Part shown: positions 4,603 through 64,000 of the stretch, one piece after another | Layout: every line of letters begins with the position of its first letter | How positions within the stretch are numbered: the first letter of the stretch is position 1 | Origin: Schmidtea polychroa | Taxonomy: Eukaryota | Assembly: GCA_044892525.1 (NCBI GenBank) | Contig: CM097885.1 | Location: forward strand, 264,120,001 to 264,184,000 | DNA: 64,000 bases | Direction: 5' to 3' | Made by a program: the position numbers and the translations under genes | The notes under the pieces: generated by a model | Databases searched by the model: none | What the model was told of the DNA's origin: nothing | What the model saw: the letters and a program-made list of their open reading frames with translations, nothing else

Positions 4603-4862
4603 TTGGGATCCCCTTTAATTAATTAATTACCTTCCTTTTTACTCGTCATTTATTCCCACTTATTCTCTACTTTTACTATCTCCTCAATTCATTTTCCTTT
4701 TCCGATTCTCCTTTTCTACTAAAAGGGTTTTGCTTTCATCTTCTATGAGCTCGTTTAATCCTTTCTAAATTCGACTTCTCGTATCCCAATTCAATTCGTT
4801 TCTAGCTAGCTTAATATTCTATCTCATTATCAACTTAAATACTATCCAATCATTTTCTAGGC

Positions 4863-5390
4863 CTTTACGACTGGCTGGCACTTTTCAACAGCTCAATCTT
4901 CTTCCTTCTGACCGGTTGGACTATTCGACAACTCGATCTTACGACTGGCTGGCACTATTCAACAGCTCAATCTTCTTCCTTCTGACCGGTTGGACTATTC
5001 GACAACTCGATCTTACGACTGGCTGGCACTATTCAACAGCTCAATCTTCTTCCTTCTGACCGGTTGGACTATTCGACAACTCGATCTTACGACTGGCTGG
5101 CACTATTCAACAGCTCAATCTTCTTCCTTCCGACCGGTTGGACTATTCGACAACTCGATCTTACGACTGGCTGGCACTATTCAACAGCTCAATCTTCTTC
5201 CTTTCGACCGGTTGGACTATTCGACAACTCGATCTTACGACTGGCTGGCACTATTCAACAGCTCAATCTTCTTCCTCTCCAAACTGGCTGGACTTTTCAC
5301 AGCTCAGTTCTAATTTCCCTGACTGGCTGGACTTTTCACAGCTCAGTTCTAACTTCCCTGACTGGCTGGACTATTCAACAGCTCGGCCTT
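4863..5390. repeat. Tandem array: ~5.6 copies of a 74-bp unit (two ~37-bp subunits) followed by ~3 copies of a related 39-bp unit
   Basis: Unit cttacgactggctggcactattcaacagctcaatcttcttccttctgaccggttggactattcgacaactcgat; period 74 also shown by ORF starts 4990/5064/5138. Confidence 0.97.
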
Positions 5391-6450: not shown

Positions 6451-6917
6451 ATCTAAAAAAAATGTGTTGTTATTATTTGTTTTTACTGGTATTACTAATG
6501 ATTTTATTATGTTTGTAGTTAATATCCGTTTGGCTTTTATTTGTTACTTTTTCTAACTTTTGTATTTTATTTCATCTTCGTAATTCCTCCGTCATATTTT
6601 CCACTTTAATGATTTACTTTTATTGTCATTACGTTCTTTCGTCTCCCTTTTTTAATTTAATAATTTAAAATTAAACATGGTAACTAATTCCCGTTTTCTT
6701 TTCTCATCATACTCTATCCTATTCATTTATACTCATTTAGGTTCGTTTTTATTCATAACATGCTCCATTTCAAACACAAACAGTTCGTATCATCATTCTA
6801 TTGCACTATAATATCGATTCATTTCAGTCCCGATTCCATTTTTTATTATAATTAATTAAATTGTTAGTCTAACACATCGTAATACAATAATAGGCAATCA
6901 AACAATTCGAAATCAGA

Positions 6918-6935
6918 ATCCCGGCTGAGCCCCCA
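6918..6935 (-). promoter_or_regulatory. Primer-binding site, tRNA-Pro-like
   Basis: TGGGGGCTCAGCCGGGAT, 16/18 identical to the canonical tRNA-Pro PBS TGGGGGCTCGTCCGGGAT; starts 7 nt after ...GCCAACA. Confidence 0.8.
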
Positions 6936-7481
6936 AAAATCATGTTGGCATATGTGGGGAAAAGGAAATTATTGCACACACCATCATCTCACACACCCTG
7001 CATCATTACTCCGCTCAGATACTCCCCATACATACACCAAATGATCATGTACATATTCCCACGCATGGGCCCGTGGTGATGTTCCACGTTGGTGCTGCCA
7101 ACACGGGTTGGAAAAGGTTAGCAGGTGAGCCTCTGCCTTAAGACTACTCCTAACCCTTCTCGGTACGGGTTCTACGGTGCCTTAGAAGGTCTTACCCCTT
7201 GCTTCACACGAAATCCAGTCTGACCCTGGTCCGAAGGGACGACATTTAAGTTCGTAGCATATCTTCAGAAGTACCTTTCACTTAAATAAGTCACAGCAAT
7301 CCATGCATACTAGGGACAAAATGCAAGGATTTGAACAGTTATATTGAACAACAAAACCACAAAGAAATACCTTTATCATTAAATAAATAAGCACAAAACA
7401 TCAACGGGCGTATATAGGATAACGTCACTTCTTCGAGTTTTCTTATGCTGCACGAAAATATTTAACCACTGGAAGGGGTCA

Positions 7482-8220
7482 TTACGGAAACCCTTCGCCT
7501 TCCGCGATCATCGCGTCGATGTCGACGGGCAATCGGTGGTCGGACATATACTTAATACCTTCTGCTGGAATTATGCGAAAGATTTCCTTAGATGGAACGG
7601 AATGGTTGGAGGATATTTCTTTTATGGTAGACTGAGCCACCGATAGGGACGCCTCGAGAGCAGCCATCGCGTCTCGGCGTTTCTGATTTTTCTCGGCTCT
7701 GGTCGGCCGTTTCCGTTTGCGGGACGACGGGGGGTTTTCAGTGTGCGGGGTGACGACGGGTGCCACCAGAATTGGATGCAAGATGGGGTCGGTAGGTCCA
7801 CCTACCACAGGTTGAGATGGGCGGTAGGCACGATCCATGCCCTTGACAGCTCGTAGTAGTTGGTTTGGATACTTGGTGATGAAGAGGGAAAACGTTCGTT
7901 TTCTCTATGACGGGGAATTCCCGTACCCGCTTGGCTAGCTCTGCCTCCGTGTATACCTTGTGGAGGGCTTCTGATTGGGCTTTGATTGTAAGCCGTTGGC
8001 ATCGGCTTTCCTCCAGCAAGCTATCTCTACAATGTTCTAACCGGAGGATTTTCTTTCGTTCCTCCTTCATTTGTGGCGGGGAGAACCACGTACCCTCATA
8101 GAGGTCAATTCTCTTCTTTAGAGCCCCGATGTATAGATGGAGCTGCGCGATATCTGCATTTTTATCGGCGCAGGAGAAACAAGGACGAGGAATTTTTTCA
8201 GAGCTGGTCGAGGTATTCAT
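7482..8220 (-). pseudogene. Unknown coiled-coil / basic-Pro-rich protein inside the LTR, split into two overlapping frames (160 aa and 118 aa)
   Basis: ORFs 7738..8220 and 7482..7838 overlap in different frames; acceptor ttttaatctttAG precedes 8220; locally higher GC; NLS-like RKRKRPTR. Confidence 0.5.
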
Positions 8221-8759
8221 CTAAAGATTAAAAGAAAAATTTATTGTCGATCGTAAAAGTTTTTCTGGAACGTTATTTGCATTTCGCATATGAGATTCAC
8301 AAGTTTCCAAATCAAACTATTCAATGGTGATCTACACACCCGTGTCGTTGATCGATACTCGCATTCATTCAAACCCAAACATTCAAGTTAACTCACTCGT
8401 TCTTTACAATTTTATGAGAGGAAAACGGGAATTTTAGACAGAATTCATTTATTATAGTTTCATCAATCGGTATAATTTTGCGGGCTTGACCCCCCCCCCC
8501 CTTCATATGTTCCATCGTTCGAGTACCATAACCTTTAACACCATTAATATATTTCTTATTGTCCAATATTGATAAGTCTACTCCTCATTACTAAGTTCTA
8601 TGAAGTTAAGTTTGTATAAATAACAAAAATTTCGGCCTTGCTTCTTTGCATTATTTTAATATTAATCGAAATTGAAAAGGAAATCATAATATATATGTTT
8701 ATTTGAACTTTGAACGTGAATTGAAAATTTTATTTAGTTCAAATTTTTGCCGTGAGGTT

Positions 8760-10264
8760 GTCATGACGACTCTAACACAGTATGTGGTTGTGACTAAATA
8801 CTGTCATTTACTTGAGTGCTGAATATGATGTGTTGCAATGCATGCTTGTGTATTGTCAATTTCTACTATTCTGTTGACCACTATGTCTTGGTGTGTCTGG
8901 TTCGGATTATGTTTTCGAGAGTGGCTGTCTAATACTCCTAGCAAAATTATTTACGGGGATACGATCTCCCCTGACGTCCCTGCACGCAATGCTACTATCT
9001 CGTTTAACTTCGTCATTGTTATGTAATGATTAGGTCACCGAACAAATTTTCTTTTTATGTGGATTGGTTGGCGGCATACTGAGAGGGAATTCCATGTGAC
9101 GTGCTGGTAGGCATGTATTATCAAGATCCGGACTCTTAGAAATCTCTACCCGATTCGTTATGCGTGTCAGCCTTACCCATTACGCGACAAATCACTGGAG
9201 AATTGGAGCTGATAATTTATCTACTATCGTGGTCGACTTCAGATATCCGTCTGTCAATGCTCTCACTGTATCTATGGTGATGACGGTTATCGCTCTCTCT
9301 CACTGTTCAGATTCCCTTTAGTCATCTAATTCGGTTGGGTATAATCAGACTGAAATCCATTTGGCAGTTATCTGATAACTTCGACAACGGCTTCCCTCGC
9401 CTCTATCGTAAGTGTTCTGATAATTTCTCAGGATTTATTTACTCTATTTTCAGAAAAACAATCCTTATCCATAGCCTAAGAATCAACAATTCACTTAAAA
9501 GTGCACCGATGATGGATTTTGTCGTTAACTCCTTAGCGATCCAAATCCCTACCGAAAAACTTGGTGACAGTCTGTGCTAATCTCGTTGGAATTTTCTGTT
9601 TGCAACCGAAGACTATGATCCCTTCGTGTTCAGCCCACCGTAACTCGGGGACTTAAGACGTAACGATGTCGAGCCTGGACTTAACAAAATATGATTATGC
9701 CTAATATTAAAGAATTGTATTTCGAATTTCTCCGGCGAATCTCTGTGGATTTGTTTATTCGCCTCAGGTGTCTTAATTTCATCTTCTCCAAAAACAGTAT
9801 TTTCTATGCCGAACACAGACATCGCTCAGTGGAAGAATCCCCCGTGCACTATTAATATCGTCCGCCTGATGTCCTCACCCCTCCTGACCCACCTAAGGAC
9901 GGCAATCATCGCTGCCACCGTCTTTAGACCGCCAGGAAGGACGATTCGATCTCCTCAATTCGTCAATTTCAAAAATTTTTGTAATAATTATGATTAAATA
10001 AATGGCATGGTTTTATAAATTAATCGTTATAATAAAATTTACTTGTCTGGCGACCACGCCGCCTGAGTCTCGAATATGATGCCGTCCCACAATAATCACA
10101 ATTGTTCAATCACCTCTATTGCTATAAATCTAGCTTCATCCCGATTTTCAATGTCACTTCTAGTCGCCATCCTCGTGGCTTCTTCTACGGATTTATTGGA
10201 CTTTCCCGCATCATATTGGATTCCCAGACGACATCGTCGCCAGCACCATAGAGAGAGAGGAACA
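8760..10264 (-). pseudogene. Heavily decayed spliced coding region of unknown family inside the LTR
   Basis: Protein-like stretches broken by stops and shifts (RDEARFIAIEVIEQL*LLWDGIIFE; AAMIAVLRWVRRGEDIRRTILIVHGGFFH*AMSVFG; HQDIVVNRIVEIDNTQACIAT); donor near 10043. Family not recognised. Confidence 0.4.
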
Positions 10265-10609
10265 TCTTTCGAAAATTAAACATTTATTATACTAAAAGAA
10301 TTTATTCAATATCAAACTCATAGAAATATTTAATATCATTATCATAAAAAGCATTTAAATCAATCACCATACTTACCAAATAATATCCTTCGAGAGTGTC
10401 AAAAAATGGTAAATGTTCAGGATTCTACTGAATCGTTTTCCTTTTGGTTCCGCTAGATACTGGTAGTCGATTTTGTTTTCGTTGAATCGTAGTCAAAATG
10501 GTGTTCAAGATGCTGTAGAGTAGCGATTAAAAGTGGTCCTCATAATAAAACAAAAAATTTTTACCTGTAGAGTAGCGATTAAAAGTGGTACTCGACAGAT
10601 TTCTCTCTT

Positions 10610-10640
10610 CCGTTATATACTATTCTTCGTCCAATCAGGA
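10610..10640 (-). promoter_or_regulatory. LTR promoter (inverted CCAAT box plus TATA)
   Basis: CTGATTGG at 10638-10631 and GTATATAA at 10620-10613; same arrangement at 20578-20624. Confidence 0.55.
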
Positions 10641-13469
10641 CGCGCCTTATCTGTGATATTTTTTATTTATTATTATTTAGGTGTTTTTATTGAAATGTGT
10701 TGGGTTTTAATAATTTTTCCTATTTGTATTAATATTTTATTTATTTTAGTATTTTTTTATTATTTTCCTCCCGTTTTCCTGCGCGTTTATTGTCATTTTA
10801 TCGTAATACAATTTTTGTTTTAATTCGCCTATACATTTATTTGAGGATTTCTATTTTATTTTCTTAAATTTCTCGTTTATTTCTTACGTTTTTTGTTATT
10901 TTATGTTTTTTCCTTTTCCTACCATGTGTGTTGGGTAATTTCACCTTATTTCGCCTTATGCATTCTATTGTTTTATTGGTTATTTTTATTTCTTTTATAT
11001 TCTTATTTCTTTTATTGTTATCTGCTTTAGTTATTCCTATATTTCTCGTGATTTTATTGAAAATTTGTTTTATCCTATTTATTCGTTCTTAGCCCAATTT
11101 TCGACACTCTCGAAGTTTAGCCCAACAGTAGTCTGTTTTGAGTTTTGTTGTGGAATGATTGTTCTGACTCGTGATAATATTTATGTTATAAAACTATGAA
11201 CTGAATTTTTGAACAAATATTGCCAAATTGGTGAATGAATGTAGTGATGGTCTTCGTAGTATGGAAACTTCTTGGAAGGTACACTGATAGATGAAGATGT
11301 AATAGTATGAATGATTATATGCATATGATATATAAGAATGTATGGATTAGAGGGTTTATGAAAAAGCAAGCTACATATGATTCTGATATTGAGTTGTCGA
11401 TACATACAGTGTATGATAAGGAATGTTTAAACCAATTATGCTCTACATGTAATACTTTCTACACATACCAAACCAAGGGTAGAGTACCCAAGGGTGTTAA
11501 AAGGCGTCGGTAAAAGGAAAAGATTAAAGCCTAAAAACGATTGAATAAACATTCAAATAAAAAATACGATAAGACTCGACAGATAACAAAGCACCAAACG
11601 TTAAATAAAGCAAATGATAACCATGCCTTAGCTTCTGCAAATGTGAATCTGAGACGAACGACATTAAAGATAAAGATATGAGTTTACCAGACGAAATAGA
11701 GCGAATCAACAGATTCTACTGAAAGTAAAAGAAAGTGAAGACATGGAAAGACATCGAAACATCACGAATAGAAATAATAACTATATATCATCAACACCTA
11801 GAATGAACAAAAGCGTTAAGTAAAAGAAAAAAAACAAGAACTAAACTTGTCTGTAAGATAGATGAAGGGATAAAACTCGCTGGTAACTCGAAAAGTAATA
11901 TGAACCAAAGACAATCGAGAATAACTATTAAAAAAAAATAAAATAAAATAAAATCACAGTATAAAAATGGAGCAAAAAATAAATCGAAATAAAATCTCCG
12001 GGACAAATACACGAGAACTAAGTTAAAGGGCAGTGAAAAACTTTACAAAATAGGCGAACATCACAGACACCAAGGGTACGTAGAAAATGAATTCTAAAAC
12101 TTATGTAAAACGACTCGGGAGAATAACAAATTATATACAGAAATCAATGAAAGTAAATATACAAGGTACGAGAATAACATGATGGATATCAACGAAAAAG
12201 ATCTAGCGAAAGAAACCAGGGAGCTCAAGGTTAGCCAAAGTAAAATGAATATACAAGACAGTTATACATACGATGCTCATATTAATAACCGGAACGAACT
12301 ATGAAAAACTATCCAACGTCAAAGATAGAGAATGAGAAACAATTAGAACCAGACGGGTGAAATATACAGCAAATGAAAGAGTACAGAACACTAAACTAAG
12401 AACAGTGAAAAGAGATCTAGAAAGTATCACGAATTACGAACCCACATACATAGAAAGGGTTATGACTATATATAGTGTGAACAATGAATATATAAAGGTA
12501 TATGATTATATAAAATTATAAGTATATATATCAGCGCGGTATAATTAGTATATAACTTCGGGAAGTAAAATGAAATAAAATTCAGATAAAAGATTATGAA
12601 TCAATATAGGTGAATTAATAGAATGAAACGGATCACAATGGAAATCAATCCCAATACCACCACAGGAGAATTATGGAAGCAGAAAAGCGTCATATTATCG
12701 TAAATAGCATTAGCTATACAGAAGCAAGGAATCTCATGGAGGAACAATCTAATCGAAAATTTGAACAATGAATTTGTTCGTGAGAGAATAATCAAGGACC
12801 AGAGAGGAAAAATTGAACTAAAGTGAAAAGAAATAGAACAACTCTAATGATAAAGTTAAATGCAAGAAATGAACTAATAAGAATAGCTGGGGAAATCAAG
12901 GAGAGAAAGATATGATAAAAATGCAACGGATAATATCAGACGTAAAAAGGAAACGGGAAAAGGAAAATGCAGGGAGCTGAAGATGAAATACAAATAGTTA
13001 TAACAATTACAGCATTATATTCATGGAAAATAGTCATAAAATGAAGCATTCAATATACCGAGATGGAGGTGGAATGAGTAGAAGAACACTTGTACCGGTG
13101 GTTTCTGTTGCGTAAAGGAGAAAAACAACGAACTATTAGCATGGTCATAACATTGAAAAGAGACGGTAATGGCAGAACTGAGTACCAAAAAGAGGACTAA
13201 TTGTATATAAATAATTGCATATATCGGTGTATACACCCCAACCAAAATGATATATAATAAAAGTAGAGGACCGATCACCATAAACAAAGATAAAATAATG
13301 CGAAAAATCAAAAATATTAAAATCTACGCCTATTTAAGAGTAAGGAAAATCAATCAGAAAAAATGGACGTTTGGCAAATATTGTAGAGAGGACACGAGAA
13401 CAAAATACTGAGAACCGAGAGAACACAAGATAATAAATAAATTAAATAATGAATGTCGGGGACGACATT

Positions 13470-13484
13470 TGGCGAAGACGCGGA
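13470..13484 (+). promoter_or_regulatory. Candidate primer-binding site of element 2
   Basis: ...GACGACA tt TGGCGAAGACGCGG: CA end followed by TGGCG. Cognate tRNA not identified. Confidence 0.4.
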
Positions 13485-15155
13485 GGAAAAATGAGATCAA
13501 ACTAAGATAACAACAAACGGGAGATCAAGATGAAAGTCAAAATGGACATGAGCAATAATAAGAACAATCGGGAAAAAGTATACAAAAACATGATTGACAG
13601 AAAATGAAGAGCACACATATAACAAAATAGAATATGAACAAATAAACACAATAAAAAATGACAAGGAAAACACAGAACGAAATGAACAAACATGAAACAA
13701 CAAATAACAAATTCACAGAAGGAAAGCAAGGCCAAAGACATTTGAACGAAAAGGCAAAACAGCGAGAAACGACAAATATAAAATGAAACATGATACAGTG
13801 AAACAGAACAAAAAAAAATTGAAAGCTTAACATCACGACACGGTCAATTAAAATAACAATAGATGCTAACAAAAATGAGATCAATTAGAAATATCGAACA
13901 AAAGTTTAATTAGGGAAAACGAACATACTGCCAACTTTTACTATGGAGCAAAAAGTTACAATAATGAAAAACGAACGGACTGTCTACTTTTATTACGAAC
14001 TATAAAGTTACAATTGTGGGAATTTCAATGATAAATTTGAATAAATTCAGAAATGATGGAAGCAATAATATCAACCACTCCAGGAACAGCTAGGGAGAAA
14101 TGCGTACAGATGTAGATATCCAGATATAGGTGGATATATGTATATGAATATATGTTTATGGATAAGGGTATATGTATAAGTATATGAGTGTATATGTAGA
14201 CATAGATAAACAATTAAATGAGATAATGAAAATAAATGACCAATCAAAGTTACGCGCCAAAAGTAAAATAACAAATAGACGCGGAAATAAGTTAAAAACA
14301 TAAAATATAGGGAGTGGAACAAAGAGGCCCATAAACAGAAAAACAACAAACAAATTTTGAAAACGTAAAATATACGAAATGAGAAACATTATGACGGGGA
14401 AATCAGTGAGGTAACATAAAAAATCAAAGATAAGGAAAATATACTAATACGGAAGCGTGATAAATTACAAAATTGAGCAGGGATGGTTAATAAATAAACC
14501 ATTGACGAATAGAAGGGTAACGAATAAAATGGATAAACAAATATTAACGAGTGATGCGAGAGGGATCTGCCTGAGGAAATAGTGAGCATATTAACGAGAA
14601 ACAAGTTAACTAAAGCGGTAAGAGTAAAAGCGATAGCAATAAGACGTTAACTAGACAAGAGACGTGGACATATTTAGAATAATGAAGAAGGACCAAGAGT
14701 AATCGAGATAAGTAGATTAAGAGCACGACGTAAAAATGAGAATAAAGTCCTACGAAAATTGAGAGCAAATGAATAAGGAAAGATTTTTCTGTTAGGATTT
14801 AGGAAATCCACAACCTATGAGCTACGCTCAGCGTAGTACGGATAAGGCCCAGGAAAGTACCAACTGTCCTGACGAAAGATGTGGAACAGGGCCCATCGCA
14901 TATACTGGAACATCTCTGCGTGTGACTGATCACCACACGATCGGAGATCGACCAGTGCGAGTGTTTCGCATCCGGAGTCAGGAGAGTGGGGAAAACCTGG
15001 AAGAGTAGTAAAAAGAAGCATGTAGGAGAAATAAAAAGAAGACCAAGTAAATGGGAAAAGAGAGAGCGAAGTAAAGAGAAACAATTAGAGCTTAAAGACT
15101 AAATTGATAGATAACCGGTAGGCAGAATGATAGGGACAAGGACAGTCAAAGGGAA

Positions 15156-15434
15156 GCGAATAATAGATGCGAATAATTGATGCGAATAATAGATGCGAAT
15201 AATAGATGCGAATAATAGATGCGAATAATAGATGCGAATAATAGATGCGAATAATAGATGCGAATACTAGATGCGAATAATAGATGCGAATACTAGATGC
15301 GAATAATAGATGCGAATACTAAATGCGAATAATAGATGCGAATAATAGATGCGAATAATAGATACGAATATTAGATACGAATAATAGATGCGAATAATAG
15401 ATGCGAATAATAGATGCGAATAATAGATGCGAAT
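15156..15434 (+). repeat. 13-bp minisatellite (GCGAATAATAGAT) ~21 copies
   Basis: Directly visible; lies between two copies of tccggagtcagg.gagtg.ggaaaacc (from 14980 and from 15434). Confidence 0.97.
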
Positions 15435-15599
15435 CCGGAGTCAGGGGAGTGAGGAAAACCCGTAAGAGCAGTAAAAAACAGGCATGCAGGGGGATAAACG
15501 TTTAGAAAGTGCACAGTAACTAAAGTAAAGACAACAAAAATAGTGAGCCTAGGACAAACGGAGAAATGGAGAATAAAACATGCATGTTAGGGATTATTA

Positions 15600-15820
15600 A
15601 GATCGAGTTGTCGAATAGTCCAACCGGTCAGAAGGAAGAAGATTGAGCTGTTGAATAGTGCCAGCCAGTCGTAAGATCGAGTTGTCGAATAGTCCAACCG
15701 GTCAGAAGGAAGAAGATTGAGCTGTTGAATAGTGCCAGCCAGTCGTAAGATCGAGTTGTCGAATAGTCCAACCGGTCAGAAGGAAGAAGATTGAGCTGTT
15801 GAATAGTGCCAGCCAGTCAT
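15600..15820 (+). repeat. Three copies of the same 74-bp unit as 4863-5280 (reverse complement)
   Basis: gatcgagttgtcgaatagtccaaccggtcagaaggaagaagattgagctgttgaatagtgccagccagtcgtaa is the exact reverse complement of the element 1 unit. Confidence 0.97.
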
Positions 15821-17289
15821 AAAGGCCTAGAAAAGCGAGAGATAGCAGTTAAGCTACAATGAGATAACACATCGAAGCTAAAGTTACAGTAAGATAGAAT
15901 ATTTAAGCTAGCTAGAAACGAATTGGAATTACATATGGGAATTTGAATTTAGAGAGGAAATAAACGAGCTCGTAGAAAAGATAATAAGATTATAGTGGAA
16001 AAGGAAGGGAAAAAAGGAAAATGAATTAAGGAGATAATGAAAATAAAGAATAAGTGTGAATAGATGATGAGTAAAAGAGGAAAATAATTAACTAATTAAA
16101 GGGAATCCCAGGTAAGTAGACAAGGTGCTACAGAATTTTTTTTTGGTTTAAACCGGATAAACGAATCTTGTTTTTGGTTCCAGAGTAGAACCGAGTAAAG
16201 AGTAATAGGTGACTTAGATATAATAGGATAAGTAAAATGGCGAAATTGCGCAAAAGTATACTAGGAAAATGAGGAGGGGTAATTAGCAGCAACGGACAAC
16301 GACCAATTGATATTATAATTGATAATTATAGATAATTGATACGACCCTATAGATAATTGATACGACCACATAGATAATTCAACATCGACGAAAATTTAGG
16401 ATTATGGTTATTCACAACCGACGAAATAGGAATTGTACATCATTCGGAAGTTTCAAAAGTAGAAGCGGACCAGATAATGATTTTTGAAGTTTCAAAAGTA
16501 GAAACGTGGAAATTAAGAATTTCTAATAAGTCTCGAAAGCGGAGACCAATGGGATAAGAATTTTGTTCCAGTTGATTGTTTTGAATGCAGAAACGAACGA
16601 GTTATAAATTTGTAAGGTAAAGAGTGGCAAGTTAAGGAATGATAAGATTGGTAAATTTTGATATATTAGTAGAAATGACAAGAAATGAATTGATATTAGA
16701 TAATCGGGTAAGAGAGAATGAATGAGAATATAAGGAGAATAATGGAAATTCTAGTTAAGAATGAGTTATAGAAATGACAAGGAATGAGTCAAGTACAGAT
16801 GAGAGGCAATACAAGTACAACTGTGAATATGGTTTCAAACTTAAGAAGAGAAACCGCTAAGTAAAACAGTGAACTAAGTCAAGAAAAACGGCAACGATAA
16901 CAATAATAGTTAATGAAAGGAGGAAATATAAAGGGTAACCGCTATAGTAAACTCAAGAAATGATTAAAACTGAAACAACCGAGAACAGAACAAGTACCAT
17001 AGTAATGAAGAAAAACTAAGAGGTAATACAAGTTAATAGATCGAGAGATAGTCATTCAAAGCCAAGAAAACCATAGAAACGAGGAAAAGGAACACAAATT
17101 AAAATAAATAAGGATCGAGAAAATTAAGTAGACCATGTGAATAAAGGTGTAAACTAAGGGAACGAGGGAACAAATATTAAGAGATGCCCAAGGAAACTAA
17201 AACAAAAATATTGCAATTATGTTATATAATATATAAATTATAATTTATAAAGATAATAAACGGTAAGGAGGAGTGATATTTTTCTAGTA

Positions 17290-19790
17290 AGGTAAATCAA
17301 TCAATCAAGATAACAGCCAAGTATCAACAATCAACCAGAATTCAACACCAAATCATTAAGTCAATCGATAAAAGAACCAAGTATGTCAAACGAAGAAGAA
17401 ACGAAAGCTGCAAAGAAAGGAAAACGAACAATCAAATTCAAGCAAACGTAAGAGGGTGAAAAGGAGAAATCAAAGCGGCATCTCAAAAACGGAAAGTTGA
17501 CCCTCAAAATAGAGTGGCAAAAGGAATTGTAAAACAGTTAGTCGAAAAGTTTAAAACGCCAGTGGAACTTCATGAAAGAGGAAATAATGTAAAAGCAGAA
17601 CTAGTAAAAGACACTGAAACCTAACTAAAGAAAGAAACCAACGATGGAGAGATAATATGGATATATGAGCGAACAAGCTAGCTGAGATGCAAAATCAGAC
17701 AACCATCCGTCGAAACTATGCAGTAACATAATCAAGTATCAATCTGAAATAGAAAGAAAGCAACCTCCAATAATAAATGTATTACAATATTTGGAAGCAG
17801 ATCACAAATTGAAAACAACCCAACTAAACAACAACAAGGATGAAACACCTTACAGATCACAAAGGCACGAGAAGCAGAAGAAAGATGGAGTAGACGAAAA
17901 GAACTTCAGGCAAAAAGTGAAGAAGAGTATTGGAGGAGGAGAAAGGAAGAACTGTTGAGAGTTGATATCACTGACAGCCAGAGGGAAAAGATAGAAGAAA
18001 TGTGTGGAAGACAACAAAGAACAGTAATACAAATCAATATGATGAAAGTGGTACCGATCAACAAACGGGAATTACAAAGAACTCTGGACTCAAGAGTGGA
18101 AAGTGAAACAATCGAAAGAATAGAAAATGTAACATTGGACCATCAAAATATCAGAATCATTGAGAACAATCGGAGAAATTATAAAAATACGGAAAATTAG
18201 GCTGATATTACAGCAATCCAAGAGAATCGCATGAGAGCAGTCAACAGAAGATATTGCCACAAATCGAAGATCAACGAAGTCTACGAGAATCGAAATGGTG
18301 AAAATAATGAAAACATCGTGACAGAAGAACGGTAAAAAATGAAAATGAGATTGAACCAAATATCGAAAATAAAGTAAAACAGTATTGTAACCAAGGCCAG
18401 CTGCGAGGACACAATGAGCGTAATTGTTCTTTGAAAATGACGGGTTGGAATTGTCAGAGAATGAGGCATTGCGAGAAGAAATGTCGTCGTACAAAAAAAA
18501 AAAAAAAAAAAGGTGTAAAAACGAATGTAAAAGAACAGGACACGTAATTAACAACGGTCCGAATGTGAAATCCAGAGAAAAATCAATCACGGAGAAGTAC
18601 CGAAGAACCAACCAAGCAAATACGCACTGAGAAAAGAATTCAACAGTCGGAGAGAAAAAATTGTCAACCTCTGATGTCAATAAAATAACAGTCGACAACC
18701 GTACGTAGAAGGGAAGAAACATGTAAAACTCAACGTATCCGAAGAATTGAGAAGACAATGTATAGAACAAGGTAACATAATAAAAGAATTTGTGATGAAA
18801 GAAAAAAGACAGGATGAATTGATAAGGATATGGGGACAAGTTGCCGAAAACAAAACAAAGAAACTGAAGTACAAAAAACAACGATACTCAGACTAAACGA
18901 AGAAGCAAAGTCAGCCGAATTAAGAATCAACAAATTAATGAATAAGCAAGATAAATGCAGAGAAATGGCAGTAGACACAAAAATGATGACGGCAAAGTAA
19001 AGGAAACTGAGGGTATAAAGAGTAAAATAGAAATTAAAGGAGAAGTGTAGATGAAAATAGTAAATAGGAAGTGTACATATGTAAAAAATTGATTTATAAT
19101 GTAGCAAAGGATAGATGTATAAGTAATTAAATAAAAATGGATCAAGTAATCAGTTGGGAAAATACAAAATTTGAACCCCCACAGTGGTAAAGGAGAACAG
19201 AGGCCCAAATGAGAAGAAAGAATATAAATCCAGAAGAAAGATAAAAGTGCAAACCCGGAAAGAATGAGTTAAACGAATATCTAAAAATAATACCTAATTT
19301 GGAAACCCTAAGCGAAGAACGGTAAAAGATCCTGATAAATGAGACGAAAGTCACAGACCCAGTGACATTAGCAACTTAATCAAATCAAGCGAACTTAGAC
19401 CAAAATCGAAAATAATTCGAGTTACCCATTAAAGAAAGAAAATCCCTTAATAAGAGCAATACCGTAAACAAAACCACCAAAGAAAACCAAAAGAAGACTC
19501 AATGTGTCAAATCACCTAGTTAAACAAAAGTTCCGAAGACCCTTGAGCAAGGTCTGTCATATACCATCAAATGATCCAGAAAATCAGAATCCCAGCCTAA
19601 AAATTCAAAGAGAATCCGGGAAAACAGTCAAACCCCGATAGGAAGAATCCTATGATCTTCGGTAAGTATTACGAGCTAATTATGAAAATCAACAACAGGA
19701 GTCAAACATGCCTACAAAACCGAGCCGAAAGATTGAAAACCGAACCCAGAAACGAGAAGAAACAACCAACTGAAGAATTGATCCAGAAAT
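17290..19790 (+). pseudogene. Decayed polyprotein of element 2; capsid and zinc-knuckle part apparently deleted
   Basis: Fragments PPIINVLQY, KAREAEERWSRRKELQ...RTVIQINMMKVV and ELRINKLMNK parallel the post-knuckle region of element 1; many stops and frameshifts. Confidence 0.6.
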
Positions 19791-20039
19791 AAAACTGTTG
19801 CATGTGACTTGACTTGAGTTTGGACATGGTATAAGTATGTATGTGTATTATGACCAGTCACTGTACGTGGCAACTGCTTGAATTTTAGCTTAGACCTTTT
19901 TCTGATAATTCAATTTTAACATGTCTTAAACTGTTATAGTATGTTTATGGGTTAATGGAAATGTAATAGACTATGATCTGCGAAATTCATATGTCTAACA
20001 GAATTGCGGGACGCAATTTTAACGGGTCCCGGAGTGATT

Positions 20040-21451
20040 TGTTGGGCTGAAGCCGAGAACTGAGAGTTTGTTTTAATCGATCGAAAAATACCTAACACAA
20101 AAACCGCAAAGTTGGAAAATTTATGACCAAGGTTTAATTTAAAATAAATGAAATAAATTACATCACACATTAAGAACCAATAAACCCCGTATAATAGAAT
20201 AAGAGATAAATAAATTTAACAAAAAATTCAACACTTAAAAATTTAAATAGAAAAATAATAAAATATAAAATAGAATTAGTTGAAAATTATTTAAACAATA
20301 TAAAAATTAAATCGTCAAAAATAATAAAATTAGTTAGCATTATATAAATTGTAAAGTTTATAGAATTAAATGGTTATTCAACTTATTAAATTTAAAGAAT
20401 AAAAATGTTTAAATTAATAAAAATTAATATAACTCAAATTATTTAAATTATAAAATTTATAAAATTAAAATTAATAAAAATTAAATAAGAAATTAATTAA
20501 ATTTATTGAATTAAAACAAATAAACAATTGCACACACTCATGCATGTATGCAAGACTAATTAAAAATTTCTCGCACTCTGATTGGATAGAGTGGCAGCAA
20601 ATGCATGAAAAATCAGTATAAATACTGATCACAAATTCATTTGAAGGACTACTTTTTCTCTAACATCAAAATTTAGTGGTAGACAGTGAAGCTCTCAGTT
20701 TTCGATTTTATGCCAACGTGGATTTGGTAATTTATTTTTTATTGTTGTAGTAATTTTACGAGATGATTTAATTTAATATGCAATAAAATTTTTAGTTAAA
20801 TTTTCTTTTGTTATTTTCTTTTAATTGTTTAATTTCATTTAGTTGTAGGTATTAAATAATAATTTTTATTGTGCTCAATTTTTATACTAACTGATTACGA
20901 ACGTTAGTACCGCTGAATTGAGATTCAGCATATCATGGTTTGAGGTACCTTCGGGATGCTCAGACTGGTGGGTATGCTGGTTTTTCAATCGCGCCGCTGG
21001 ATTGGGCCGGAATGTGGGGGCTTCCTCACGGGTCCTATCGCTGGAAGTACTGTGGTCAAATGTAGGTTAGGACTGAGAATACAGGCAGATCCCTGCTCAA
21101 ATTTTTTGAAGTATAACGTAAATATTATGGGAAGCGTGGATTAACTTGAAAATAAGGGCCAATCCCTGCTCAAATTTTTCAAAGGATAATTTAGATATTG
21201 TAGGAAGTGTAGAACAATAATTATTAGCTGGAAAATAAGGGCGGATCCCTGCACAAAATTTGATAAGAGAACAATTAGAAATACCCGTAATTGAGGACCA
21301 ACAACGATCCAAAAATAGCATATACAGTGAATAATGACGTAAGACCTTCTATCGGCAGTCTAGAACCCGAAAAGAAAATACAATGGGGAGTAGTTTTAGT
21401 AATAGAGCTCACCTGCTCATTGTTTTTTCGCCTTTGTGTACAGTACCAACA
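20040..21451 (+). mobile_element. Short LTR related to the element 1 LTR (3' end uncertain: 21304 or 21451)
   Basis: Starts TGTTGGGCT; CTGATTGG at 20578 and TATAAATA at 20617; donor ATTTG|GTAA at 20727. 20945-21060 resembles element 1 LTR 7260-7040 (ccttcgg...tcagactgg; cacggg.cc). No matching TSD found. Confidence 0.55.
21090..21270 (+). repeat. Three imperfect ~75-85-bp direct repeats (core gatccctgc.caaattt)
   Basis: Cores at ~21088, ~21162 and ~21244. Confidence 0.7.
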
Positions 21452-22119
21452 TGGTCGTCACCATGGTTACACAAATGGTTTAAAGTTCAATAGTCATGGA
21501 GGTGCTTAGGAAAGAGTCGAACGATTATGATTACCCCTAACGCATTTTAAAATGTAAAAATGATACACCCCTAAGTAACCAACACAGGTTTACCGCGAAA
21601 TGTTTAATTCATTTATTTTGCCGAAATCTTATAAAGGTTGAGAATCACTAACCTAATATGTTTGACAATTATTTCGAACACTACAAACTAATTAAAATTA
21701 TTTCTTCTCTTCCTAATTCTTAAGATGATGATTTGAAGCGTTAAGTGTTTTTTAAACTTTTTCCAATTATATTTCTTTCAATTTCGATCTTTAACTTTGC
21801 AAGAAGAATAATTAACAATATGCCTTAAGTTTATTCATGTTATGCAGATATTCTATTTTTAATGTTTTTAAAGTTTAAAAAAAAAATCAAAGAAAAGTCA
21901 TCAAAAAATAATTGAATCGAGTAGATGTTTGTTTATATATGTTTAATAATTTCTGCTAATTTGAATTTTTTAATATGTAGTTCTTTCTTTTAAATTCCTA
22001 ATGGACAACATAAATAAATTAATAGATTTTTTATCCAAAAATATCCAAACTGAAACAAACAATGTAACACTTGCTGCTCACAGTGAGACAATCTTTCCTT
22101 TTACATCTTCCTCCACTTC

Positions 22120-45323: not shown

Positions 45324-46632
45324 TATTATCAATATTATTATTATCAATATTAGTGAAAAACCTAAAATATTTTTACACACATATACAACCCATTAAACTT
45401 TATTAATATTATTATTATTATTATTATAATTATTATTATTATTATTAGTGAAAAAACCTTAAATAATTTTTACATACTAAGTTATGGGGTAGAGTATTAT
45501 TATGTTTGCAGTATTCTGTGTTTGCCTTTACAGGAAGTTGTCAATAAGGAGCGATAATTTTACACTAACATTCTATATACACATACCTTGTTTAACATGG
45601 GTGTATATATTCCTAGTTTATCCGACAAAATATTCTGTCCCCCTATGGGTATTGGTCGTAATGGTACTACTCACACTCAAATGTTTTCGATTTTAAAGCA
45701 CATTATGGTTTATTAAGGTTATTAAATAAAACTTATCACACACACTATTTTTAATAATATTTAAACGATAAAAATCAAGACAAGAGAGGACAAGGCAAAG
45801 TGTATGCATTTAGTATTGCCAGGCCTAATGAGCAGTGACCAAATATCTGTGCCTGAAAGACACGGTGGATATTTGTTCGCGTCCACAAGGGTCGTCTGTG
45901 CCTTCCCCAAGTGGGGTCAGAAGAACCTGGGCATTATAGCTTTCCGTATGGAACATTACGCCTAGCATGGGTAGTCAACTACCAGCACATTCGAAACGTA
46001 TAATTTCAAAATACATGCGTCATTGGCACTATAACCAAATTAATTAATGTTTTCACTAACACAAATATATATTTACAGAGGCCTCCCACTAGTTGGATTA
46101 CAACCGCCCACCACGACGATCAGCTTGTAAATATATATTAATTAAGGAATAAAGAGGACCCACCCAACTCTACTATATTTAATTTACAAATTTTTCTCGC
46201 TCTTCTGTTGGTAATCTATCTCAAAAAAAAAAAATCTATCTCACCATTTTGTCTGATTCATTTTCTTCATAATCATATAATTCATTTTCTTCATAATCAT
46301 ATAATTCATTTTCTTCATTACTAAGTAAAATAATTAAAATATTGTAGTAAATTCTTTATTTACTTACTTTATGGATACTAAAACGAAAGAAATAAAGTTA
46401 TATCAAAATTATATTTAAATAATCTAAATTTAAATAATTTAAATTTAGTATTTAAACATATTTAAACACTTTAGTTATTTAAGCATATTTAAACATTATT
46501 ATATAGTATAACTTTATAAAATATTATAATATTATAATTTTATGTATTCTAAATTTATTAATAAATATAGTATAATTTTATATAATATTATGTATTGTAA
46601 ATTTAATATATCCTTCATTTAATTTTTTAAAT

Positions 46633-47064
46633 TCAAAAATTTATAATGAAGATTCTTTGAATTAAAAAATATTCTGTTAGTATTTCCAGGTAGAAATCAA
46701 CGAATTCAATAATTAAAATCTTAATTTTCATGTTGTTAGGGTTGTGGCCAAAAGTTAATCGCCATCTAATCGTTTGTTCAGTTATCAGCCTGTTCTCAAT
46801 TTTGCTCATTTTGTTCAAAACATTCAGGTGAGTTGTTATCTGGAAAGTTTCTTTGAGCTCAGTTTTGTTAAAACACTCACGGTATTTTCGAGGGACGTGA
46901 CACTGGAAATAAATTAACAATGGGTGGTCATCCATACATGTTGTTAGTCTGAGCTCTCGATTTATTTTAGAAATAGGTATATTAAAAACATTTAAGTTAT
47001 CATTCAGTAAAATAATATAATATTTTTGAGTTAATTTATAAATAACAGTATTTTGATATATCAA
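46633..47064 (-). CDS. 143-codon hypothetical ORF, left-arm copy (TTG start, no in-frame ATG upstream)
   Basis: Longest open frame in the element; identical translation in both arms; no recognised domain. Confidence 0.35.
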   Translation of the reverse strand: MIYQNTVIYKLTQKYYIILLNDNLNVFNIPISKINRELRLTTCMDDHPLLIYFQCHVPRKYRECFNKTELKETFQITTHLNVLNKMSKIENRLITEQTIRWRLTFGHNPNNMKIKILIIEFVDFYLEILTEYFLIQRIFIINF

Positions 47065-50000
47065 TAAAGACCATATACTCCGAGTTTATCCGACAAAATA
47101 TTCTGTCCCCCTATGGGTATTGCTAGCAAGGGTACTGGTCACATTCAACATATCGCAAGGGTATATTAATCAGTTAGAAATTCTTAGGTAATTTAGTGAG
47201 ATGATCACAAATTCGTGAATATTTTAAATGTAACTTTACACTTTTGTCGAGCGACTAATTTATTGGTTAATATTTTAGACATTTAAAGCAAAAGGTAATT
47301 TATTCATCTAATGTTCGTTACAATAGTTAATAATATGAGAAAAACATGGTCATTATTCATTGATAATTTTAAATTCTTTATCATTTGGAGTAAATTTGTT
47401 CGAGGCAAAAATATTTAAAGGAGTCATAATAGAAATATGGTTATCATTTAACCAAATAAGGTGCTTATTAGTTAAAAATACATGTTCATATAGGGTTACA
47501 ATTCTTTTCTAATTTAATTAAATGATCATTAGGCGTAATATATCTTTTCGAGAAATTTAAGATGTTTGAGTAACCAAAACATGGATATTTTGTGCGATAA
47601 ATTTATGAATATTGGTTAATTTTGTTATTTTTAGTCATTTAAAATAATATTTAGCAAAGGTAATTTAGCAAAATATCATTTATCCACCCGATAACAATAT
47701 CCCTTCAATAGATTAACTGATATTCAACCTATTTAATTTCTAATTAAAATCATAAATTTCCTTCAATAAAGTTAAAATTTCTTTAGTTGTCGATGTCCAA
47801 CTCTTTTAAGTCTATATTTTTGTTACCGTTATCTTCATAATGAATGTCCGTCTTTAACATGTTAAATAAAATAATTTAAAGCAATAACCTTTGATATCAA
47901 TTATCTCTAAATATTTCATTGGCAAGACCAAGTAAATTAGTCATTAACCCTAAACACTTTGATAAAATCCTGGATAATTAATAGACTATTTCCCTTGAAA
48001 CATTTCCAATAAGAACATCACCCATTTAAATATTCAAAACATTTCCACCCTAACCGATCCCTCACCAAATATTTCTACCCCTTTAAACATTCAACCGACT
48101 ATATACTATATATTCCCAACTTAACCGAACCCTCACTAAATCCAACCGACTATATCTCTTAATTTCAACCACTTGAGCCCTTTAATATATTTTAAAATCT
48201 ATAGAAAATTCTTCAAAATATGAATTTTATTTAATTGTTACAGACATTTTTCCATTGAAATAATTTAGTAGCTAAATTCAAAGAGTCCACTTAAAGATCA
48301 AAATTCATTAAAATAAATATTTAACCACGTGTATCATCAAATACCTAACTAGAGATGATAATATCTCATTGATTGATCATAATTATAACCATTATAACAT
48401 GATATATCTTTCAAACTAAATCACAAATTTCAGTATATTTTACAATAATTTTCAAGTAGATTTCAAATATATCATCATCGTGATAAAATTAGCTGGTTTC
48501 AACTTTAGATTTTCAATATTTTAAAGTTCATCAATGTGTAAATATTCTTAGAAAAATATATGAAAAAATTATTTAGTCAAATTATCATTACAAAGTCATC
48601 ATCATCATCAAAATTAATAAAATATAGCAAATTATCAAGAAATTAACTAAATTTGTCTTAGAATTAACAATAAACCTTAAATATTCTTTCAATTAACATG
48701 AAATTCACAAAAACAATGTTAGTAAAATCCCGCTAACGCTAAAAATTACCAATGAATTTAATGCCAAATAATAACCAAAAATTTGCCTAAATAAAACACA
48801 CCAGTACCTTTACGACCAATACCCATCAAATTGAATCAGTCAAATTATCACAAATTTTAATAAAAAATCTTATTCTAAAGTGGTAAGCAGCGTAGAATCG
48901 AAAGATAATTTTAATAACACAGAGATAAAATTAACAATATTATTCTCAGGTGGTAAGAATATTTTATTTTTGAGTCTGTTATCCCTCTATTATATACCGA
49001 GAAGTGTCATAAGATGGAAATATATTAATTGCATTTATTTAATATTATTTCATGAAATTCATAAAAATTTATAAAAATGATCACTTTAATAAAAAAAAAT
49101 ATTTAATTCAATGTTCAAAGAAATAGTTGTTGGGAGGATTAGTGGAAAATGGGGGGGGGCTATAAGTGATGAGGATTTATAAATTATTTCTAATATATGA
49201 GTGACTAACGAATTAAAATATTTTAATAATGTGATAAACATTTATTTTGATAAAGTATTTAATCCAAAAATGACAAACATACATAACAAATGGTATTCGA
49301 CTAAGCAAATATGATAACTTTATATTTTAAATTTTGATTAACTCCTTTAATATTGAATTAATAATTATGATATTTGCTATTTTACATTAAATATTTCAAA
49401 AACAGATATTCTAAAAGATAATTTAAGATACATTACTCTTTTTAATCAAAATGATCTCTCAAAGTTAAGAAGGAAACAAAGTGTGTCAGAACACATACCC
49501 AGAATTAACTTTACTTAAATTTATGAAAACATCAAGTAAGCAATGATAATAGAGGGATAACAGACTCAAAAATAAAATATTCTTACCACCTGAGAATAAT
49601 ATTGTTAATTTTATCTCTGTGTTATTAAAATTATCTTTCGATTCTACGCTGCTTACCACTTTAGAATAAGATTTTTTATTAAAATTTGTGATAATTTGAC
49701 TGATTCAATTTGATGGGTATTGGTCGTAAAGGTACTGGTGTGTTTTATTTAGGCAAATTTTTGGTTATTATTTGGCATTAAATTCATTGGTAATTTTTAG
49801 CGTTAGCGGGATTTTACTAACATTGTTTTTGTGAATTTCATGTTAATTGAAAGAATATTTAAGGTTTTATTGTTAATTCTAAGACAAATTTAGTTAATTT
49901 CTTGATAATTTGCTATATTTTATTAATTTTGATGATGATGATGACTTTGTAATGATAATTTGACTAAATAATTTTTTCATATATTTTTCTAAGAATATTT

Positions 50001-51475
50001 ACACATTGATGAACTTTGAAATATTGAAAATCTAAAGTTGAAACCAGCTAATTTTATCACGATGATGATATATTTGAAATCTACTTGAAAATTATTGTAA
50101 AATATACTGAAATTTGTGATTTAGTTTGAAAGATATATCATGTTATAATGGTTATAATTATGATCAATCAATGAGATATTATCATCTCTAGTTAGGTATT
50201 TGATGATACATGTGGTTAAATATTTATTTTAATGAATTTTGATCTTTAAGTGGACTCTTTGAATTTAGCTACTAAATTATTTCAATGGAAAAATGTCTGT
50301 AACAATTAAATAAAATTCATATTTTGAAGAATTTTCTATAGATTTTAAAATATATTAAAGGGCTCAAGTGGGTGAAATTAAGAGATATAGTCGGTTGGAT
50401 TTAGTGAGGGTTCGGTTAAGTTGGGAATATATAGTATATAGTCGGTTGAATGTTTAAAGGGGTAGAAATATTTGGTGAGGGATCGGTTAGGGTGGAAATG
50501 TTTTGAATATTTAAATGGGTGATGTTCTTATTGGAAATGTTTCAAGGGAAATAGTCTATTAATTATCCAGGATTTTATCAAAGTGTTTAGGGTTAATGAC
50601 TAATTTACTTGGTTTTGTCAATGAAATATTTAGAGATAATTGATATCAAAGGTTATTGCTTTAAATTATTTTATTTAACATGTTAAAGACGGACATTCAT
50701 TATGAAGATAACGGTAACAAAAATATAGACTTAAAAGAGTTGGACATCGACAACTAAAGAAATTTTAACTTTATTGAAGGAAATTTATGATTTTAATTAG
50801 AAATTAAATAGGTTGAATATCAGTTAATCTATTGAAGGGATATTGTTATCGGGTGGATAAATGATATTTTGCTAAATTACCTTTGCTAAATATTATTTTA
50901 AATGACTAAAAATAACAAAATTAACCAATATTCATAAATTTATCGCACAAAATATCCATGTTTTGGTTACTCAAACATCTTAAATTTCTCGAAAAGATAT
51001 ATTACGCCTAATGATCATTTAATTAAATTAGAAAAGAATTGTAACCCTATATGAACATGTATTTTTAACTAATAAGCACCTTATTTGGTTAAATGATAAC
51101 CATATTTCTATTATGACTCCTTTAAATATTTTTGCCTCGAACAAATTTACTCCAAATGATAAAGAATTTAAAATTATCAATGAATAATGACCATGTTTTT
51201 CTCATATTATTAACTATTGTAACGAACATTAGATGAATAAATTACCTTTTGCTTTAAATGTCTAAAATATTAACCAATAAATTAGTCGCTCGACAAAAGT
51301 GTAAAGTTACATTTAAAATATTCACGAATTTGTGATCATCTCACTAAATTACCTAAGAATTTCTAACTGATTAATATACCCTTGCGATATGTTGAATGTG
51401 ACCAGTACCCTTGCTAGCAATACCCATAGGGGGACAGAATATTTTGTCGGATAAACTCGGAGTATATGGTCTTTA

Positions 51476-51907
51476 TTGATATATCAAAATACTGTTATTT
51501 ATAAATTAACTCAAAAATATTATATTATTTTACTGAATGATAACTTAAATGTTTTTAATATACCTATTTCTAAAATAAATCGAGAGCTCAGACTAACAAC
51601 ATGTATGGATGACCACCCATTGTTAATTTATTTCCAGTGTCACGTCCCTCGAAAATACCGTGAGTGTTTTAACAAAACTGAGCTCAAAGAAACTTTCCAG
51701 ATAACAACTCACCTGAATGTTTTGAACAAAATGAGCAAAATTGAGAACAGGCTGATAACTGAACAAACGATTAGATGGCGATTAACTTTTGGCCACAACC
51801 CTAACAACATGAAAATTAAGATTTTAATTATTGAATTCGTTGATTTCTACCTGGAAATACTAACAGAATATTTTTTAATTCAAAGAATCTTCATTATAAA
51901 TTTTTGA
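51476..51907 (+). CDS. 143-codon hypothetical ORF, right-arm copy
   Basis: Mirror of 46633..47064. Confidence 0.35.
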   Translation: MIYQNTVIYKLTQKYYIILLNDNLNVFNIPISKINRELRLTTCMDDHPLLIYFQCHVPRKYRECFNKTELKETFQITTHLNVLNKMSKIENRLITEQTIRWRLTFGHNPNNMKIKILIIEFVDFYLEILTEYFLIQRIFIINF

Positions 51908-52279
51908 ATTTAAAAAATTAAATGAAGGATATATTAAATTTACAATACATAATATTATATAAAATTATACTATATTTATTAATAAATTTAGAATACATAA
52001 AATTATAATATTATAATATTTTATAAAGTTATACTATATAATAATGTTTAAATATGCTTAAATAACTAAAGTGTTTAAATATGTTTAAATACTAAATTTA
52101 AATTATTTAAATTTAGATTATTTAAATATAATTTTGATATAACTTTATTTCTTTCGTTTTAGTATCCATAAAGTAAGTAAATAAAGAATTTACTACAATA
52201 TTTTAATTATTTTACTTAGTAATGAAGAAAATGAATTATATGATTATGAAGAAAATGAACCAGACAAAATGGTGAAACA

Positions 52280-63157: not shown

Positions 63158-64000
63158 TAGTGTTTCCAAACGAATAATCGAGTAACCGAGTACTCGTCTA
63201 TTTTCAGATATTTTCCATTATACGGTTAACCGGGTAATTTCGTCGAGTAACCGAGTAGTTACTTTAGATATAATTTTTTTTTCAAGCAAAAAATATCAGA
63301 AATTATGATATTGGTTGCTATAGTAACATTCAATATTTTCTATTTTTCTTAACTAAGCAAGCAAAATTATAAAATTCTTTAGAAAATCATCTTTAAGAAG
63401 CGAAATTTTAAAAAAATATACTAGCCAAAATGAGGGAAATTGTTTACGTTTGCTCTTAGATATAAAGACTAGATGGAGTTGTTTAGTATTGGCAACTGAG
63501 CAATTTTTAAAATTAATAAACTCAGTTAATCGTGCTTTGGTCGAGCTAGGGGTAGCGCCTTATAAAAATGATAATATTGAATTGTTAAAAGAAATTGTTT
63601 CAATTTTAGAACCGGCAAAAATAGCTGTTTTGGAATTGAGTAAACAAAATTCTAATTTATTGACTGGAGACGCAACATTACTATATGTGTTTCAAGAATT
63701 AGAATTGATTAAAACTCCGCTCGCGACAGAATTCTTGTTTAATTTGAAATCTCGAATTGAAAAACGTCGAAATAAAGAATTGGTTACTCTATTATCATTT
63801 CTACACCACGGCGTGTATCCTGAAAATAACAAATTTTTTGAATATTCAACTAAACATAAAGTTAAAGGATTTGCAACAAAAATAATGAACCGTTTATTTC
63901 CCAACGATTCTGAAAGTTCAAGCACTAATGAAGATGAGGAGCCTGAGTTGCTAAACCCATACAAGAAATTACAAAAGTGTATTTCTTCTACCTAAACACT
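63158..64000 (+). mobile_element. hAT (Ac/ZBED-like) element 5' end with internally deleted transposase, runs off window
   Basis: TAGTG start with CGAGTAACCGAGTA subterminal repeats; ORF 63450..63995 LLDIKTRWSCL...ILEPAKIAVLELSK. Confidence 0.85.

Follow-up and report, generated by a model that had tools for sequence, protein, structure and literature searches.

We analysed a 64,000-nt stretch of Schmidtea polychroa DNA (contig CM097885.1, positions 264,120,001 to 264,184,000 of the forward strand), referred to here as the window and numbered from its first letter. It contains two LTRs, LTR1 and LTR2, and the element to which LTR1 belongs (element 1) sits nested within the LTR2 element. The main features of the two elements are the following:

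6943..11127, minus strand: LTR1, 4185 nt, TGTTGG...CCAACA, the 5' LTR of a ~30-kb Burro-like element
6918..6935, minus strand: PBS-like 18-mer, 7 nt beyond the end of LTR1
7741..8222, minus strand: LTR-encoded ORF, 159 aa here, with the distal acceptor AG directly 5' of its ATG
20040..21584, plus strand: LTR2, 1545 nt, which is the 3' LTR belonging to a young relative; 4-bp target duplication

LTR1 starts at 11127 on the minus strand, and its partner LTR, found 26.5 kb downstream, is 99.9% identical to it across 3665 nt. The end of LTR1 was placed at 6943 because a sister copy has 4067-nt LTRs. With LTR starts 26.5 kb apart and a 4.1-kb LTR, the total length of element 1 is ~30 kb. Pfam domains in its interior follow the order Retrotrans_gag with CCHC knuckles, then PR-RT-RH-IN (gypsy order), in pieces split by stops, with a fusion glycoprotein (PF24664, E 1.5e-26 and 2.6e-46) between gag and protease and with Ank_2, zf-C3HC4 (RING) and a weak zf-TRAF_2 as accessory domains. 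This is the size and domain set of the planarian Burro/GYPSM1 gypsy-like LTR retrotransposons, which the available text of PMC6431247 describes as ~30 kb long and carrying gag CCHC knuckles, a fusion glycoprotein, PR-RT-RNase H-integrase, ankyrin and RING. BIR, BCL2-like and dUTPase-like domains had no Pfam match at E 0.01 in 11 pieces from ORFs that were scanned in part; HHpred was used in PMC6431247. The LTR2 element has its termini, PBS-like site and pre-U3 sequence in common with element 1, 40 of 40 scored matches to LTR2 were 99–100% identical, and one sister copy contains no long sense ORF. LTR1 and LTR2 both come from Burro-like giant Ty3/gypsy elements.

The ORF within LTR1 is 253 aa long in most sisters, and at least 150 matches at 77–100% identity were obtained from 6698 candidates; it had no Pfam match. 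The PBS-like 18-mer may resemble a tRNA-Pro site, and a search for the primer tRNA, in which six loci were typed, returned only Lys or Arg genes and did not identify the primer. No purine tract precedes the 3' LTR. Directly before U3, at 20000-20039 on the plus strand, is a stretch of 40 nt that contains two small inverted repeats and is nearly invariant over both clades described below and LTR2, and the same pre-U3 place is occupied in L002, L086, L091 and L110. A pairing of this pre-U3 element with the PBS was rejected (-20.9 and -22.4, with other windows equal or stronger). An identical string of five letters stands right after the 5' LTR and right before the 3' LTR. Towards the LTR 3' end, one block (~7080-7200, minus strand, and ~21340-21455, plus strand) is visibly common to LTR1 and LTR2 amid differing surroundings; it had no Rfam match, and neither did any other part of 6500-22000 at E 1. 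Tandem repeats of 74 nt are present in the internal regions of both elements (4791-5350 and 15598-15822), along with a 13-nt tandem array at 15075-15499. Elsewhere in the window are a near-perfect inverted repeat (46281-52259, arms of ~2.7 kb, 99.8% identical) and two fragments picked out by eye, 58675-59698 (minus strand), presumably a gypsy RT-RNase H remnant, and 63357-63992 (plus strand), which we assume to be related to hAT transposase.

An earlier note on this DNA had proposed that the start of U3 pairs with a site next to a splice donor in both LTRs. The features that bear on this pairing are:

11094..11121, minus strand: U3 arm of LTR1 with its core at 11115-11098, while 11121-11116 could reach across donor positions -4..+2
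10613..10638, minus strand: reverse CCAAT motif and TATA box of LTR1, kept in all LTRs used and presumably functional
10377..10512, minus strand: exon 2 of LTR1, which ends in the second helix arm (10409-10388)
10371..10376, minus strand: donor 2 (GTAAGT), with precise joints to downstream acceptors in genomic copies and in one contig of run X2
near 10266, minus strand: proximal acceptor, assigned by homology
20040..20080, plus strand: U3 arm of LTR2, core 20054-20066
20676..20719, plus strand: second arm in LTR2 with its core at 20692-20704, downstream of the TATA at 20617
20727..20787, plus strand: LTR2 GTAATT at 20727, a putative donor, and AATAAA at 20782-20787

Both pairings were reproduced as described. 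In LTR1, positions 11115-11094 form 20 Watson-Crick pairs, one G-U pair and one mismatch with 10409-10388 on the minus strand, and in LTR2, positions 20054-20066 form 12 Watson-Crick pairs and one G-U pair with 20692-20704; the claimed spacings of helix to donor, 11 nt (LTR1) and 22 nt (LTR2), are also correct. The donor in LTR1 had been called the first one. An earlier donor, CAG|GTAAAA, is located at 10564, so the helix adjoins the second. Each duplex was compared with 300 dinucleotide shuffles of the partner region. The LTR1 duplex reached -35.7 kcal/mol (shuffled, -20.7 +/- 2.5) and the LTR2 duplex -36.7 kcal/mol (shuffled, -20.4 +/- 2.6), levels attained by 0 of 300 shuffles in either case. 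The longest run in LTR1 was 18 bp, with a shuffle maximum of 13, while the 16-bp run in LTR2 was matched by 6 of 300 shuffles. Both helices are longer than the cores first reported.

To follow the helix beyond the window, LTRs were gathered from the assembly (781 Mb, four large contigs) by DNA search and via the LTR-encoded ORF, and 66 passed a start-plus-promoter filter. Together with LTR2 they formed 24 clusters, from which 23 representatives were used; 30 near-identical copies of LTR2 were reduced to one. We left out 13 of the 40 loci fetched upstream of the LTR ORF, which had no intact LTR start in range, as well as L010 and the tandem-array loci L028-L030. That array (G000:C1:186483607-186501346, L010 and L028-L030) is built of 1524-bp units, each containing the first 376 nt of U3 at 98–99% identity.

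Within this set, 22 representatives out of 23 had the strongest partner for U3 nt 1-45 at the end of exon 2. The exception, L097, has a point change relative to its relatives, and the helix is kept in seven of its nine nearest ones. Cognate duplexes averaged -30.2 kcal/mol and non-cognate ones -20.6 kcal/mol, a difference reached in 0 of 100000 permutations, although this count is not a probability since the rows are related. The U3 segment involved differs between two clades, ~nt 13-35 in one and ~nt 4-20 in the other, with the partner still in exon 2, and several of their LTRs gave no BLAST alignment with LTR1 over the helix region. Uninterrupted helix runs are 8–24 bp, and the U3 arm lies 500–800 nt from its partner. 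The end of the helix is no more than 23 nt from the donor in 19 representatives out of 22 and 41–46 nt away in three (overall range -2 to ~75 nt), distances that may be biased since donor 2 was assigned by eye for each representative after the duplex had been seen. L024 was excluded from donor tests as the donor is absent there. One further subfamily has its helix ~65–75 nt from the donor, with four copies that also lack the donor GT. L126-L129 (C1, 2.8–4.0 Mb) are four clustered copies with the helix and without the donor 2 GT, which may be segmental duplicates.

Compensatory change, for which the earlier note had suggested a test, was significant in one grouping and not in three others. Among the 13 rows of the window's group, both-side changes affect 5 of 18 pairs, and none of 5000 arm swaps equalled the observed pairing; the both-side changes fall mostly in one lineage and amount to about three events. 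The same test in A2, B and B+LTR2 was not significant (1530, 356 and 431 of 5000 swaps), with arms that are conserved or shifted in register and with two rows misplaced by MAFFT. It is highly improbable that the complementarity has no RNA function and reflects chance, an inherited inverted repeat or a structure at the DNA level. Such an origin would fit the antisense fold, which is equal or stronger in 8 of 23 representatives, and the shared ancestry of the LTRs, by which the counts are not independent. Arguing the other way are the shuffles, none of which reached either duplex energy, the both-side changes and register shifts that keep the pairing where the flanks no longer align, and the excess of G-U over A-C cells (11:6, 32:20 and 48:16), a comparison biased by the choice of pairs on the sense strand. 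At the level of sequence, the complementarity between the start of U3 and the end of exon 2 is real and conserved across Burro-like LTR subfamilies.

Donor 2 of LTR1 was identified as a used splice site, as the earlier note had supposed, from precise intron losses in genomic copies. In L024 and L077, 25.2 kb apart, donor 2 is fused to the ATG of the LTR ORF and the 2.15-kb intron is gone; these two were the only such matches among 40 scored of 227 candidates. In L113 and L114, 26.1 kb apart, and in one identical copy on a small contig, a segment of 94–106 nt is missing that starts with GT in eight of eight relatives checked and ends with AG in the one end seen. The LTR-encoded ORF is reached via splicing from donor 2. 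A contig of run X2 also carries the joint of donor 2 to the ATG, and was not counted as RNA evidence as the kind of run is unstated. The contigs of six runs (X1, X2 and X5-X8) contained no transcript start or poly(A) end. Because precise intron losses occur at donor 2, transcription must begin upstream of the second arm. The left edge of a short duplication, described next, gives the same placement, contrary to the case raised in the earlier note in which a start downstream of the second motif would keep the two arms from sharing an RNA.

Upstream of exon 2, LTR1 contains a small exon and intron with an unusual repeat:

10565..10589, minus strand: exon 1 (X, 25 nt), with a probable start at 10589, TATA+30, taken from the left edge of the X/X' duplication
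10513..10564, minus strand: mini-intron 1 (52 nt, GT..AG); its final 25 nt (10537-10513), termed X', are a copy of exon 1
10590..10598, minus strand: U3 stretch immediately ahead of the start, able to form a short duplex with the final 10 nt of exon 1, with one mismatch in LTR1

In 58 of 66 LTRs, X, the 25 nt between TATA+30 and the first donor, is repeated as X' at the end of an intron of 45–52 nt; intron 1 is missing in seven, and X' is damaged in one. X and X' are identical in 47 of the 58, over 16 variants of X, and 4 of the 11 differences concern only the first base compared. The base preceding X is T in 56 of 58, while that preceding X' varies (G 21, T 19, C 11, A 7). We consider it very probable that splicing removes intron 1 at the 5' end and that strong-stop DNA, annealing at X' in an unspliced 3' R, restores it in each cycle. 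Strong-stop DNA would be copied from intron-1-spliced RNA up to the cap, gain untemplated bases and anneal at X', so that X overwrites X' and the intron survives. Strand-transfer junctions are hot spots of error. Intron-less copies by themselves prove nothing, because recombination between X and X' would look like loss by splicing; the argument for rebuilding is made because X and X' change in concert and the junction base varies. Both elements with precise intron loss (L024/L077 and L113/L114) keep intron 1, as rebuilding predicts. In folding predictions, the last 10 nt of exon 1 were unpaired at 0.01–0.23 with U3 and 0.36–0.89 without it in 10 of 10 clade A LTRs having intron 1, and U3 had no effect on them in five clade B LTRs. 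By this model, the short pairing of U3 with exon 1 may help clade A to retain the 3' intron 1 unspliced.

Whether the helix can form within a single LTR depends on the extent of R, for which the relevant feature is:

10248..10306, minus strand: candidate poly(A) signal AATAAA at 10306 and 10288, pyrimidine tract and probable R end, from conservation

All 15 of the 15 representatives from clade A and LTR2 carry AATAAA 55–103 nt beyond donor 2 (1.6 expected). No other hexamer in that interval is common to all of them, and AATAAA is followed by a pyrimidine tract. In clade B the canonical AATAAA is present in one of eight, variants in five and neither in two. Copies without the AATAAA stretch appeared, among the scored matches, only as the two LTRs of single elements, a weak indication. 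From this conservation R likely ends ~20 nt past AATAAA and is ~300 nt long, holding both donors and the second arm, and U5 would then measure ~3.3 kb. The second arm lies upstream of the conserved AATAAA and ~3.4 kb from the PBS. With the second arm likely inside R, the 3' LTR can form the helix by itself: if R ends past AATAAA, the U3 arm would have an identical partner ~700 nt away. Local folding from the LTR start recovered at least 13 of the expected helix pairs in 19 of 23 representatives, and the helix was lost in 4 of 15 when the folded stretch was made 60 nt longer.

We propose, with a probability of about 0.4, that the helix of U3 with exon 2 is a mark of 3'-end identity that licenses polyadenylation, in a layout like that of foamy virus. 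The two arms would pair locally, within the portion of the RNA that contains the 3' LTR. By analogy with foamy virus, U1 at donor 2 would hold back the poly(A) site at the 5' LTR, and the helix would let the poly(A) site past donor 2 act at the 3' LTR and not at the 5' LTR. The weakest step is how the block would be lifted at the 3' LTR, perhaps by weaker recognition of exon 2 and not by covering the donor; alternatively, the helix might bring a conserved 3'-only element, just 5' of U3, close to the poly(A) site. We settled on this probability because of the layout and because the partner never leaves exon 2, where it stays despite a U5 of ~3.3 kb and clade-specific U3 segments. LTR2, which is without intron 1 and without the ORF, yet has the helix, the donor-like site and AATAAA, was also counted in favor. 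Folding predicted no consistent change in access to AATAAA with U3 (more open in 8 of 15, less in 4) or to the region downstream of it (4 versus 8).

The earlier note had instead proposed that the pairing suppresses splicing, and the folding predictions speak against this. With U3 present, the core U1 site was easier to open in 15 of 23 representatives and harder in five, and the donor was more paired in only six of 23. Covering of donor 2 could be read from the wider window of -15..+8, which was harder to open with U3 in 17 of 23, largely from overlap with the helix, and from U3 nt 7-12 of the window's group, which can extend over donor -4..+2 with 10–13 of 13 sequences paired per position. 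However, the helix is up to ~75 nt from the donor in some subfamilies, and the 3' U3 would be made ~26 kb after the 5' donor. We therefore regard suppression by donor covering as very unlikely.

The comparison with Ty1 circularisation, also drawn in the earlier note, is weakened in that the second arm is likely in R, whereas CYC5 of Ty1 lies outside R, but pairing of the two ends stays a live rival, close behind the polyadenylation mark. The U3 arm and the 5' copy of the second arm could join the ends of a ~27-kb RNA, or of two strands, for minus-strand transfer, leaving the 3' R free for the cDNA. In its favor, the RNA is of great length and U5 would be ~3.3 kb, the distance of helix to donor is loose with no predicted effect on access to the donor or AATAAA, and the arm would sit just inside that end of R which reverse transcriptase encounters first. 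Ty1 needs pairing of this kind (PMC3592414, available text), but its 5' partner adjoins the PBS. Here the local helix is predicted, an identical partner is close by in the 3' LTR, and an R of ~300 nt already supplies long homology, so that end-to-end pairing appears somewhat unlikely. Self-priming as in Tf1, which pairs the RNA 5' end with the PBS, was set aside as the arms here are U3 and exon 2.

A role of the helix as a packaging, dimerisation, export or translation signal of the full-length RNA, with short LTR transcripts lacking U3, is unlikely. Both arms occur together only in RNA that reaches the 3' LTR, the apparently non-coding LTR2 keeps the helix, and distal-acceptor splicing leaves the second arm 11 nt ahead of the start codon of the ORF, all as such a signal would have it, but it gives no reason for the arm to remain upstream of donor 2. 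Taken as a whole, the combination of a 3'-only helix that triggers polyadenylation with an R intron spliced at the 5' end yet rebuilt at each strand transfer, for which we found no counterpart in the literature searched, is doubtful.

Every LTR element must make two identical repeats act differently, and a helix kept across LTRs too diverged to align points to cis-acting control in a very large retroelement family. Burro-type elements are tied to planarian stem cells, as reported second-hand in the available text of PMC13465017. Through the X/X' duplication, the genome sequence by itself is enough to map a start site and a strand-transfer junction. Intron 1 tells the 5' from the 3' copy of R, making local and end-to-end pairing directly testable. 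It also bears on the persistence of introns in reverse-transcribed genomes; if correct, an intron is retained and passed on by an animal retroelement that splices it out of its own genome.

In the literature within reach, which included few subscription papers, we found no description of this helix, no report of an intron rebuilt by strand transfer and none of introns in Burro LTRs; earlier Burro papers or their supplements may describe LTR transcripts. The available text of PMC12789967 has nothing on U3:R pairing, that of PMC8532177 concerns expression only, and the account of Burro/GYPSM1 in PMC6431247 deals, in its available text, with proteins only, without LTR introns, an LTR-encoded ORF or U3:R pairing.

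Long-range pairing in LTR elements is already known from Ty1, foamy virus and HTLV-1. In Ty1, a motif of the 3' region pairs over a long range with one near the RNA 5' end (CYC5/CYC3), as the U3 arm could here; CYC5 adjoins the PBS and is present only at the 5' end, whereas the partner here is likely in R, at both ends and ~3.4 kb from the PBS (PMC3592414, available text). The Rex response element of HTLV-1, as described in the available text of PMC3694450, is a 3' LTR structure that bridges a long distance for 3' processing. It resembles the helix in spanning a long distance at the 3' LTR and differs in that its AAUAAA lies in U3 upstream of the structure, while in these LTRs both arms are followed on the 3' side by the conserved AATAAA and the AATAAA motifs of U3 are inside the loop. 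The same source describes prototype foamy virus, in which the major donor is in R upstream of its poly(A) signal, with U3 altering the fold only at the 3' LTR. The arrangement here may be alike, with a donor before a candidate poly(A) signal in R, AATAAA, that is weak in clade B. In foamy virus, refolding of 13 nt beside the start conceals the donor (PMC3694450); in the present LTRs the arm is placed at the 5' extremity of U3 and the donor is not predicted to be hidden.
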